A stretch of DNA of 64,000 nt from an uncultured Lachnospiraceae bacterium (lineage in GTDB: Bacteria > Bacillota > Clostridia > TANB77 > CAG-508). The DNA is taken from assembly GCA_964616165.1 (NCBI GenBank), contig CAZTTS010000001.1:17537-81536 (forward strand), given 5' to 3'. The position numbers were made by a program. Numbering within the stretch: position 1 is the first letter of the stretch; every line of letters starts with the position of its first letter. Shown in pieces: positions 34,601 to 37,600 of the stretch.

Positions 34601-37600
34601 TAACAATGATATTATGGAGTATAGTTAAGAGGTTAATTAAATAAATAGAATAAATACCTATAAAAAATATAAATATTTAAATTAAGTAAAAAAGAATAAT
34701 AATAAATAATAAAGGAGGCAATATAGAATGAATGTAATTAGTTTATTTTCAGGGGCTGGTGGATTAGACTTAGGATTTAAAAAAGCAGGATTTAATATAA
34801 TTCTTGCAAATGAATTTGATAAAACAATTTGGAAAACATATGAGAAAAATCATAATGTTAAGTTAGTAAGAGATGATATTCGTGATATACCATCTAATAA
34901 GTTTCCAGATTGTGATGGAATAATTGGAGGTCCACCTTGTCAATCATGGAGTGAAGCGGGTTCTTTAAAAGGGATAAATGATCCACGTGGGCAACTTTTT
35001 TATGAATATATACGTGTATTAAAAGACAAAAAGCCAAAGTTTTTTGTTGCAGAGAATGTAAAAGGAATGCTATCTAAAAGGCATACAAGTGCAGTAGAAA
35101 ACATTATTTTACAATTTCAAGAAGCTGGATATGATGTTTTTATTCATTTATTAAATGCAAGTGATTATGGTATCCCACAAGATAGACAAAGAGTTTTTTA
35201 TGTAGGTTTTAGAAAAGATTTAAAAATTAAATTTGATACACCACCTAGACCTTATGATTTTAAATTAACATTTAAAGATGCAATTTATGATTTAAAAGAT
35301 TCTGCAATACCAGCAAAAGAAAAAAACAAAACTAATGGAAAAGAATGTATAGTTTCTAATCATGAATATTTTATTGGGGATTTTTCTCCTATGTTTATGA
35401 GCAGGAATAGAGTTAGAACTTGGGAAGAACAAGCATTTACGGTTCAAGCTTCAGGGAGGCAGTGTCAATTACATCCTCAAGCACCAAAAATGCCAAAAGT
35501 TGGAAAAAACAAACATATTTTTAAACCAGGGGAAGAAAAATCATATAGAAGACTAACAGTTAGAGAATGTGCTAGAATTCAAGGATTTCCAGATGATTTT
35601 GAATTTTATTACGAGAATTTAAATGATGCATATAAGATGATTGGAAACGCTGTTCCTGTAAATTTAGCATATGAAATAGCAAAAAACATAAAAAAACTTT
35701 TAGAAAATAAATAATAATTATTAGGGGGAGTTATGAGTAGTAAAAGTAATAATCAAGGGAGAGCTTATGAGTTTGCATTTTTAAACATTTTATACAAAAA
35801 AATATCAGAAGTAAGGTGTGCAGAAATAGAAAAAAATAGTAGTTATTTTGCCGCAGAAAAAGCTTGGGAAACGTTAACAAAATTGGATAAAGAAACATAT
35901 AAGATTAGTGCTTTATCAGGAATCGAGACCATATTTGAATTAGAGCCTTTGATTTTGGATGATTGCAATGATAGTGTTTTGTTAAAAATTCAGGCTGATG
36001 ACAAAGGAAAGGATGGTGATGTAAGGGATATTTTAATTATTAGAGAAAATATTCAGTGGGAGATAGGTCTTAGTATAAAACACAATCATTTTGCCGTGAA
36101 ACATAGCAGGTTATCTAAAAATTTAGATTTTGGTGAAAAATGGTATGGTATAAAATGCTCTGTTCAATATTGGAAAGATGTTAAACCAATTTTCAATTAT
36201 TTAGAAAATAAAAAACAGGCAGGTGTCTATTGGCGAGAAATAATTAACAAAGCCGATAAAGTTTACGTGCCTTTATTGAATGCATTTAAAAATGAAATAA
36301 TCAGACAAAACGAATCATATAAAAATAAAATACCAGAATTAATTGTAGAGTATTTATTAGGCAAGTTTGATTTTTATAAAGTAATTGGAATTGATAGAGA
36401 AAGAAATACTCAAATTCAAAGTTATAATTTAAGAGGCACATTAAATAAACAGGGAAAAGTTGTAAAAAGAAGAATGGAAATACCAATATCAAAGCTTCCT
36501 ACAAGAATTATATATTTAGATTTTAAACCTAATAGTAAGAATACTTTAGAGTTATATTTAGATAATGGATGGCAGTTTAGTTTCAGAATACATAATGCAT
36601 CAAGTAAGGTAGAGCCAAGCTTAAAGTTTGATATACAGCTTATAGGAATGCCTGCAACTATAATAACTATAGATTGTAAATGGGATCAGATTATTTATAA
36701 TTAATAAGTAGAGATAATTTGAAATATATTTAAGATAAGAAAGAAAAGAATGAATTTAAAAGAATTTTATAATAATAGTATAACAAAAAAAGAATATCAT
36801 TATAGATTTTATGAATTAATAAACTTTGACTATGGTCTTTATATAGATGATGATAGTTTATTTGAAATATATGATGAAGAAGAGGCAATAAAAAAATTTA
36901 AGGCATTATGCCAACCAGATGTGCATTTTAACTTTGAAAATAAGAGTTGGTTTTATTTGATAACTTACTATTTAGATAAAAAAGGGTATATATTAAAAGA
37001 ATTTCCTAGAATATTAGCTAGACCACCAGAAGATCCATTGGAATTTGTATATCATGAAATAAGAAATTATATTATATCTATAGGTAAAGATGATGATGGA
37101 ATAGTAAGATATGCTGCAAGGCGAATATTTGTTTCAAACTTTACCTTTAAAAAAACGAGTAGCTATCTAAATATAAAAGGTACACTAAAAGAAAAATTCA
37201 TAGAAATTTCAACAAGAAAAGCTACATTTAATAATATGAGTATAGATGAAAAATTATCAGAAATAACAAATTTAATAGAAAATTTATTAAAAACTGGTAA
37301 GAGATTTAAAGAACTGAATTATTCAAAGCTATGTTTTGAGTATATAACAAATGAAAAAGTAAAAAAATACAGGCAGCAAATGCAATGTTTTAGACATGCT
37401 TCAAAAGAAGCGATAGAAGAAAGAAAATTATATTCTAAAAGTCAGAAGGAATTTTTAATAGATTATGGAATAATAATAATAAATTCAATTGATTTATTGT
37501 TAAAAGAGGAATTTAAATAAAATACAAATAATTTATTAGTATAAGCTAATCGTTTATTTGTTCTACACAATAATTTAATTGTATTAAATAGGAGAAGTTA

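Follow-up and report, generated by a model that had tools for sequence, protein, structure and literature searches.

How does a complete HaeIII-like restriction–modification (R-M) pair come to lie between the two halves of another R-M gene? The question is raised by a 64,000-nt stretch of contig CAZTTS010000001.1 (assembly GCA_964616165.1, positions 17,537 to 81,536 of the forward strand) from an uncultured Lachnospiraceae bacterium; this whole stretch is hereafter called the window. Within it, a cassette that carries the pair interrupts a gene for a type IIL enzyme of the MmeI family. Comparison with an uninterrupted allele of the target, with sister contigs and with metagenomic relatives points to a decayed composite element of the serine-recombinase type, bearing R-M genes as cargo, which disrupted the resident R-M gene. 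We put the probability of this reading at about 0.7. Features are listed in Table 1, and a slash in a sequence marks the insertion boundary.

The boundaries of the cassette follow from an empty site. When the two gene halves were joined and the 922-aa product was used as a query, we found P0113, a protein that is 100% identical across the junction and reads ...KLGKLTFLDPACGSGNFLTETF... there. It is encoded on L002 (ENA ERZ12298774), a metagenomic contig whose junction DNA reads KLTFLDPACGSGNFL. Positions 1-1270 of L002 correspond to window 33121-34390 at 99.84% identity and positions 1264-1719 to window 39399-39854 at 99.78%; the BLAST alignment breaks at 34390/39399, with a 7-nt overlap and nothing in between. 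The empty site reads TTTTTTAGATCCAGC, and the occupied site TTTTTTAGA/AATGACA...GGTTATAGA/TCCAGC. Common to both cassette junctions and to the empty site of L002 is the dinucleotide GA, the pattern by which a crossover dinucleotide is recognized. The flanks differ from the empty allele at 3 of 1,726 nt and the gene halves are otherwise undamaged, which indicates that the insertion is recent. The allele in L002 may never have carried the cassette, instead of having been restored by its excision. That the pair is the cargo of an inserted cassette, as a first-pass annotation of this DNA had proposed, is thus borne out by an uninterrupted target allele at 99.8% identity. The tail of L002 (1720-1765) is Illumina adapter sequence (AGATCGGAAGAGC...), so the last 11 residues of P0113 (QIGRASCRERV) are an artefact; the junction is unaffected. 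A Logan contig from another sample, L001, corresponds to window 34361-39431, that is, to the cassette extended by exactly 30 nt at either end. This is the pattern expected at a branch in a k=31 assembly graph, and from it we infer that the sample holds both the occupied and the empty allele.

The interrupted gene is identified by its domains. MmeI_N and MmeI_hel are found in the N-terminal fragment, and MmeI_Mtase (E = 1.6e-71), MmeI_TRD (E = 1.1e-73) and MmeI_C (E = 4e-23) in the C-terminal one, so that the five Pfam domains of an MmeI-family type IIL enzyme are split over the two. The joined 922-aa sequence aligns with a 921-aa protein at 99% coverage and 71% identity. On the left, the reading frame of the N-terminal fragment runs into the cassette and stops at 34406, gaining the tail EMTFA; an exact look-up of this truncated protein found no match. 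On the right, the open reading frame (ORF) at 39446-41023 can be read in frame upstream of its start, giving ...KVIDPACGSGNFL, which is motif I. The insertion point is the Asp codon of this S-adenosylmethionine (SAM)-binding motif (KLTFL-D/PACGSGNFL). Enzymes of the MmeI family carry out restriction and modification with one polypeptide; cleavage is SAM-dependent, and motif I is needed for SAM binding. Insertion in motif I would abolish both activities of the resident system without lethality, because a single SAM-dependent polypeptide carries both.

The ends of the cassette are imperfect inverted repeats, complementary at 26 of 34 positions and lying 2 nt from the GA on each side. Among 2,000,000 random window pairs, a match of at least 26/34 occurred once (∼5e-7 per pair). 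Imperfect inverted repeats around the crossover are a mark of elements moved by large serine recombinases, and a search for relatives of the cassette led to such elements. The closest homologue of ORF256, a gene of the cassette, lies ∼150 nt inside an element end of the form GA/AATGATAATAYCGAAATTGATACAAT (longer form GA/AATGATAATAYCGAAATTGATACAATTTAACG...), which we call the L036-type left end. The window end, GA/AATGACATTTGCTTAATTGATACAAT (longer form GA/AATGACATTTGCTTAATTGATACAATAAAAC...), is identical to it at 32 of 47 positions. A word-limited search returned 292 homologues of ORF256, which are proteins of ∼260 aa. Of six independent contexts of such homologues, five have serine recombinase genes no more than a few genes away, and several also have LlaJI-type R-M genes nearby.

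A G-rich tract near the left end provides a further link. With 33% G and 4% C, it falls at the 99.8th percentile for G and holds the window maximum of G minus C. It contains three G boxes spaced by ∼21–22 nt, and a promoter-like site (34587-34615) lies just downstream of them. L036-type elements carry two TAGGGGTGT boxes in their left end, at a spacing of 21 nt, which makes the tract a conserved left-end feature of this element family. It probably serves as a promoter or binds a protein; no RNA-structure signal was detected in it (z = 0.82). The first-pass annotation had singled out this tract as atypical for the genome, which holds, and had placed the cassette downstream of it, which does not: the cassette starts at 34391, so the tract lies inside.

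The right-hand part of the cassette has its own relatives. Three Logan contigs (L003, L033 and L034) carry the ORF192 region, here called module B, at 99.4–99.7% DNA identity and with the same right-end motif. In these contigs the right end is followed by CGATGATATTTATACAACAGGTGCTACATTA, the comF sequence that in the window is found after the internal copy of the right-end repeat. As comF sequence follows both ends, we read the internal copy as the fossil of an earlier right junction with a comF gene. Directly upstream of module B, L003 and L033 have an ORF of 108–124 aa that matches the extreme C-terminus of 'recombinase family' proteins; its identity to a large serine recombinase of 518 aa (residues 400-518) is 39% (E = 1e-24). 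At the position of this stub the window has 30 nt left.

What does the family to which these ends belong look like, and where does it insert? JGI metagenomes and IMG/VR were scanned with the core of the L036-type end. The scan gave 23 loci, which together with four found earlier make 27 (L036-L065; from Logan, JGI, ENA and IMG/VR) and provide 23 distinct left junctions. Wherever downstream sequence suffices, a tandem pair of recombinases (518 and 586 aa, 80–100% identical), or its start, lies 0.6–7 kb inside the end; the pair was not matched in four loci that are cut within ∼1.2 kb of the end. Cargo between the end and the recombinases is variable, and the longer loci, L036 and L065, have DNA polymerase A encoded beyond the pair. 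L065:352-7228 may serve as the example of this phage-like family. GA stands at the boundary in all 23 left junctions, and the sequences diverge immediately outside it. In 22 of the 23, the flank is an ORF that ends in hydrophobic residues plus Asp, GA being the first two bases of the Asp codon.

Most of these flanks are DNA methyltransferase genes: 20 of 23 junctions truncate such a gene at the Asp codon of motif I (D/PACGSG) or motif IV (D/PPY). Targets of the gamma class of N6-adenine methyltransferases are cut at motif I, in the contexts ...FYTPxxV...VY-D/, ...LTFL-D/ and ...LTIL-D/, and a sample of flanks searched against Pfam matched either HsdM_N with N6_Mtase, cut at profile position ∼51/311, or MmeI_N with MmeI_hel. 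Beta-class targets are cut at ...GDNLxxLKxL...IYI-D/. Two beta-class flanks were tested by tblastn; both matched 'site-specific DNA-methyltransferase', and one also 'type III EcoP15I subunit M'. An intact Mod homologue reads KMIYIDPPYNTG. For flanks other than the Pfam sample and these two, the target class was assigned by motif, by eye. The three junctions outside methyltransferase genes are in an aminoglycoside nucleotidyltransferase gene, in an ABC ATPase gene and at one flank without assignment. At the DNA level, the two motif classes have GA/YCC NSC NTR Y in common (DPPY = GAY CCN CCN TAY; DPAC = GAY CCN GCN TGY), a similarity that could explain the dual targeting. The context of the window cassette, LTFL-D/PACGSG in an MmeI-family gene, is one of the target classes of this family.

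The cargo itself was assigned by homology. The M and R genes are co-oriented and separated by an 18-nt gap, with a Shine–Dalgarno sequence before each. The M product matches PF00145 over residues 1-323 of 328 (profile 1-324/324, E = 1.7e-110) and scores 293 bits against TIGR00675, for which the cutoff is 100.65. Its top match in PDB is M.HaeIII (1dct), end to end with E = 2.7e-161; M.HhaI comes second (8e-44). Global alignment with M.HaeIII gives 232/328 identical residues (70.7%), close to the ∼70% that the first-pass annotation had given. The identity extends, as also claimed there, into the variable recognition region, at 67.6% over residues 171-275 and 28 of 31 positions in the block FMSRNRVR...QLHPQAP, which places the enzyme in the M.HaeIII-type group as against other 5-methylcytosine (m5C) methyltransferases. 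The 1dct alignment shows the complete motifs FSGAGG, PPCQ, ENV, QDRQR and GNAVPV, including the four picked out before (FSGAGG, PCQ, ENV and QDRQR); these correspond to motifs I (FxGxGG), IV (PCQ, with the catalytic Cys), VI (ENV), VIII (QxRxR) and X (GN) of C5-methyltransferases.

For the R product, the adjacent 323-aa ORF, the earlier suggestion of a HaeIII-family endonuclease was likewise upheld. It matches PF09556 (RE_HaeIII) over residues 9-307 (profile 1-298/298, E = 8.1e-132) and the PADLOC REase_II model (1.9e-128). A database search returned >7,000 homologues at ∼70% identity, the best non-self match having 73%. Its length is typical of the family (homologues of 317–325 aa at 69–73% identity), and source records in Neisseria, Gemella, Mesomycoplasma, Dialister and Avibacterium name such proteins 'HaeIII family restriction endonuclease'. 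In PDB, the endonuclease family has no solved structure and gave no sequence match. The homology check proposed in the first-pass annotation thus came out on the side of HaeIII, with M.HaeIII rather than another m5C methyltransferase as best match and with endonuclease homology in the downstream ORF. Both reading frames are free of frameshifts and full length against hundreds of homologues and the Pfam profiles. From its sequence, the pair is an ordinary new member of the very widespread HaeIII family, and GGCC is most likely its target.

Compared with the HaeIII system of Haemophilus aegyptius (M.HaeIII, PDB 1DCT/3UBT; R.HaeIII, PF09556), the pair agrees in full-length methyltransferase identity and motifs, in the full-length RE_HaeIII match and in the order M then R on one strand. 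It differs in its host, a 26% GC bacterium known from a metagenome-assembled contig, in the lack of a regulator gene, in its location on a recombinase-less cassette inside another R-M gene, and in having a specificity that is predicted rather than known. The same M-R unit is found, 75% identical in nucleotide sequence, on a conjugative plasmid of Streptococcus agalactiae, where a helix-turn-helix (HTH) gene lies upstream of it; the cassette lacks this HTH gene, and no controller protein gene for the pair is present in it. When searched against plasmid and phage collections, the whole cassette was not found as a unit, and matches were to the M gene, or the M and R genes, only, the S. agalactiae plasmid being the best of them.

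These findings can be combined in a model. A large serine recombinase acting in trans would have integrated the cassette. The terminal repeats would be the P' and P arms of attP, GA the 2-bp crossover, and the motif I coding sequence attB; the reconstructed attP would contain …AAGGTTATAGAAATGACATTT…, and the attP joint would read ...GTGTAAAGGTTATAGAAATGACATTTGC.... The cassette would consist of two modules. Module A would comprise the left end, the G boxes, M, R and ORF256, closed by a right end to which the comF fragment of an earlier site remains joined. Module B, with ORF192 and a tRNA-synthetase-like pseudogene, would derive from the right side of a second element whose recombinase was lost. 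By pairing the outermost left and right ends, the recombinase would have moved the composite as one unit into the MmeI-type gene.

Several observations weigh against this model. No serine recombinase homologue was found in the cassette or in the 64-kb window, which covers part of a 95.7-kb contig, nor any integrase or transposase in the cassette. As it encodes no large serine recombinase, the cassette is at best a non-autonomous derivative of serine-recombinase elements. Scans for the exact window-type end were also negative. The motif AATARTTTWATTGTATYAAWT, alone or with N7-8 GTYAT, had 18 matches in viral contigs, all by chance and with no extended similarity; in GTDB genomes there was one chance match, inside feoB, and in JGI metagenomes none. 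A second full element of the window type, or an autonomous partner with the same exact ends, was absent from all three scans. The family link is therefore made up of 68% similarity of the ends, a 58%-identical accessory protein and the 39%-identical recombinase stub in the sister contigs. For the recombinase-bearing relatives, the retrieved sequence includes no right junction that would show target reconstitution and the absence of a longer duplication. The composite, with its two right-end copies and the comF fragment between them, fits more than one order of events, and the comF fragments that seem to flank module B on both sides in the sister contigs are only partly accounted for by the model. 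The GGCC specificity, methylation and cleavage ascribed to the cargo are read from sequence. Finally, TAGA at both junctions would fit a 4-bp target duplication by a DDE transposase equally well.

This last point was the basis of our first reading, in which the ends and TAGA were taken for the signature of a DDE transposon; it was downgraded once recombinase-bearing relatives and GA-only junctions had been found. In its present form, it would have the cassette be a non-autonomous DDE-type transposon, that is, a mobile insertion cassette or miniature inverted-repeat transposable element with passengers, for which a transposase in trans made the TAGA duplication. Inverted repeats exactly at the ends with TAGA on both sides, and the lack of a recombinase on board, are what this would predict, and there is a resemblance to R-M units for which a transposase in trans was left open (Furuta et al. 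2010; PMC2853133). But relatives that share the end motif carry large serine recombinases beside that very end, and sister copies of module B retain a serine recombinase stub. Moreover, the 23 related junctions share GA alone and in one conserved codon context, as in site-specific recombination. No cognate transposase was found, the one transposase-like ORF being an IS30-like passenger in L065 (by eye). We consider a DDE-type origin unlikely. The same junctions bear on a simpler idea, that microhomology-mediated end joining at a chance double-strand break used TAGA and that the inverted repeats are incidental. It would account for the 4 nt of identity at the junctions, but repeats of this quality at the exact termini are expected about once per 2 million random pairs, and 23 further junctions have this type of end in the same codon context. 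End joining is thus highly improbable.

A different question is whether the event took place in this lineage at all. The MmeI-type allele may have come, already interrupted, from a related strain, with the gene halves on either side of the cassette serving for homologous recombination. The window has no recombinase, its flanks are 99.8% identical to the empty allele (so that both alleles occur in one population), and the cassette-only Logan unitig suggests that both can occur in one sample. Import leaves the end structure and the choice of target unexplained; it may account for arrival without a local recombinase, and it is compatible with serine-recombinase integration as the original event. 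As the explanation of this locus we find it possible but doubtful. Horizontal acquisition in general, which the first-pass annotation had put forward, is favored by the empty site and by the lack of GGCC avoidance but draws no support from base composition, as the cassette (25.7% GC) matches the window (26.2%) and shows no sign of foreign origin in this respect. The count of GGCC sites proposed earlier for the genome was run on the 64-kb window, where 23 were observed against 23.4 expected (0.98). GGCC is not avoided, which fits a recent arrival of the cassette. The same number could be taken to mean that the pair is HaeIII-like by descent yet silenced, defective or directed to another recognition sequence, as could the lack of a controller gene that the S. 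agalactiae homologue has upstream; in addition, the endonuclease family offers neither a structure nor defined catalytic residues for comparison. Yet a recent arrival would itself leave GGCC frequency unchanged, both ORFs are intact and full length, all catalytic motifs of the methyltransferase are present, and its recognition core is nearly that of M.HaeIII. An inactive or retargeted pair therefore seems quite improbable.

Table 1. Coordinates of the cassette, its target gene and its contents in the window
Feature	Position	Strand	Evidence or remark
N-terminal 383 codons of MmeI-family type IIL R-M gene	33240-34390	+	MmeI_N E = 3e-33, MmeI_hel E = 8.5e-22
Left TAGA copy	34387-34390	.	GA (34389-34390) supplies bases 1 and 2 of the motif I Asp codon, proposed crossover dinucleotide
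Inserted cassette	34391-39405	+	5,015 bp including one GA copy; empty-site comparison
Left terminal inverted repeat	34392-34425	+	26/34 complementary to 39369-39402; read as P' arm of proposed attachment site
Terminator-like hairpin, then T run	34493-34530	+	Seen in sequence and fold; strict terminator scan negative
G-rich tract, three G boxes	34531-34600	+	Composition; boxes TAGGGGTGT at 34532, TAGGGTGT at 34555, AAGGGGGTAT at 34573
C5-cytosine DNA methyltransferase (M), M.HaeIII-like, predicted GGCC	34728-35714	+	328 aa; Pfam, PDB, global alignment
HaeIII-family type II restriction endonuclease (R)	35733-36704	+	323 aa; Pfam, PADLOC, homologues
ORF256, conserved accessory protein of serine-recombinase elements and integrative and conjugative elements	36750-37520	+	Homologue contexts
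Internal right-end repeat copy (IRR') with GA (37603-37604)	37566-37604	+	Repeat comparison; read as fossil right junction
3' fragment of ComF-family (phosphoribosyltransferase-type) gene, ...VI-D/DIYTTGATL...	37603-37815	+	Translation; TIGR00201
30 nt identical to start of contig L003	37792-37821	+	L003 continues with serine recombinase C-terminal remnant, deleted in window
ORF192, similar to component B of PADLOC candidate defence system PDC-M11	37963-38541	+	PDLC04425, phrog_3136
Class I aminoacyl-tRNA-synthetase-like pseudogene, ORFs of 181 and 103 aa	38480-39352	+	HIGT and KLSKR motifs; phrog_35625
Right terminal inverted repeat	39369-39402	+	Pairs with left repeat; read as P arm
Right TAGA copy	39402-39405	.	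GA at 39404-39405; empty-site comparison
C-terminal 539 codons of MmeI-family gene, from Asp codon of DPACGSGNFL	39404-41023	+	Translation; Pfam

ORF256 has no Pfam match, and its AlphaFold2 model (predicted local distance difference test score 83) gave no informative fold match. A homologue of ORF256 is also part of a small element on another locus (L024-L028: 5050-12427), beside a rumA-type tRNA/rRNA methyltransferase gene. Besides a serine recombinase of 310 aa and an HTH_17 protein, that element encodes a complete LlaJI-type system (two m5C methyltransferases, an AAA_5 protein and RE_LlaJI), a further case in which a serine-recombinase element carries R-M genes. The comF fragment corresponds to the last ∼70 codons of the gene and was recognized by NCBIfam TIGR00201 (E = 5.5e-5; fragment residues 3-36, profile 157-190/190) as sole support, as Pfam, PDB phmmer and plasmid tblastn searches did not detect it. 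ORF192 matches PDLC04425 (E = 7.9e-15) and phrog_3136 (E = 3.5e-14). The gene that follows it matches phrog_35625, 'tRNA synthetase' (E = 1.1e-6), and weakly gltX (E = 0.085); its region has an 85-bp difference from L003, and the gene is broken differently in the window than in L003, L033 and L034. Judged from sequence, these two genes (37963-39352) look like a decaying candidate defence module. Promoter and terminator scans stayed at or below shuffle expectation, and Rfam has no match in the cassette; the single Rfam match in the window is a tRNA gene at 48309-48381. The chromosomal setting of the interrupted gene includes CotH and polysaccharide deacetylase genes, with gyrA directly downstream.

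Two further observations concern short palindromes in the window. GGCC is absent from a 16.5-kb region (23682-40240), including the 5-kb cassette, where ∼2.7 sites are expected; the deficit is of marginal significance, and the region is low in GC. The most depleted 4-nt palindrome is ACGT, with 16 sites against 34.2 expected (0.47); the ratio is 0.71 for GTAC and 0.77 for CATG. The depletion of ACGT may be the mark of an ACGT-specific restriction system that has long resided elsewhere in the genome.

How does the cassette relate to known mobile elements? Methyltransferase genes as targets of serine integrases are already documented, and the principle is not new. Streptococcal integrative and conjugative elements (ICEs) with serine integrase triplets target hsdM (PMC4701971), and Tn1806-like ICEs have been shown by conjugation to enter hsdM (YeeA domain), SNF2-methyltransferase and Eco57I-type methylase genes, with TGGG/GGGA repeats (PMC12942858). 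Like the elements described here, Tn1806-like ICEs are serine-recombinase elements inside methyltransferase genes (hsdM with a YeeA/MmeI-like domain) whose direct repeats are very short and whose insertion disrupts the gene. They have three integrases and a conjugation module, whereas our relatives have two recombinases, phage-like genes (DNA polymerase A) and GA at an Asp codon, and also enter beta-class genes (DPPY, type III Mod); the window copy has no recombinase and carries R-M cargo. As the integrase triplet, the conjugation module and TGGG/GGGA are all absent, target class is the one feature shared, and the elements described here do not belong to the Tn1806-like group.

Other elements resemble the cassette in different respects. 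TndX of Tn5397 works with a central GA and favors sequence that codes for a conserved domain (PMC4430133). Tn5397 and the clostridial transposons Tn4451 and Tn4453 thus share with our family a central GA, imperfect end repeats, a conserved-domain target (Fic for Tn5397) and hosts among low-GC Firmicutes, but the targets here are methyltransferase motif I or IV, and comF. The one match that bears on a relationship to TndX or TnpX, to DUF4368, is sub-threshold (E = 0.017). The R-M units of Furuta, Abe and Kobayashi (2010), with imperfect inverted repeats, short duplications and empty sites (PMC2853133), are alike in having no mobility gene, imperfect inverted repeats, a short repeat and an empty site in a related genome. 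Their duplications are 8 bp long and no enzyme was identified, whereas the comparisons made here favor a serine recombinase, and the disrupted gene itself belongs to an R-M system. Finally, Tn6164 of Clostridioides difficile arose from two elements that integrated at a single target and fused, and it has retained a copy of the site internally (PMC3485107). This composite, with a target copy between its elements, parallels the right-end copy and comF fragment at 37566-37815, but it is 106 kb long, uses a TG crossover and has kept its recombinase.

Against this background, what is new is the GA crossover in an Asp codon, a range of targets that takes in DPPY as well as motif I and thereby extends over type I, IIG/IIL and type III systems, the two recombinases in phage-like elements of anaerobic-digester and fermentation metagenomes, and the recombinase-less derivative with R-M cargo in the window. 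Why should such a target be used? We suggest, tentatively and as a possibility that we consider less likely than not, that the attachment site of the family evolved to be the Asp-Pro codons of methyltransferase motifs, that insertion disarms host restriction, and that the window copy swaps in its own type II system. Insertion in such restriction systems is not lethal, because loss of the methylase also abolishes restriction. For the cell, the incoming pair would bring a new type II restriction specificity, for GGCC. Type II R-M systems are known for post-segregational killing, and killing of this kind by the pair would stabilize the now immobile cassette against loss.

At this locus, defined to the base, a resident restriction system has recently been knocked out by an incoming one. 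More broadly, a two-recombinase, phage-like family inserts almost exclusively in methyltransferase genes, and does so at a single codon within the most conserved motifs of these genes; its recombinases, together with a short conserved attB, would be directly testable reagents. If the targeting is adaptive, mobile elements could neutralize host restriction by insertion and gain a near-universal safe landing site, and this would account for some of the split or 'pseudogenised' R-M genes in genomes. If the disarming interpretation is true for the window copy as well, this Lachnospiraceae bacterium would have undergone a swap of defence systems by site-specific recombination.

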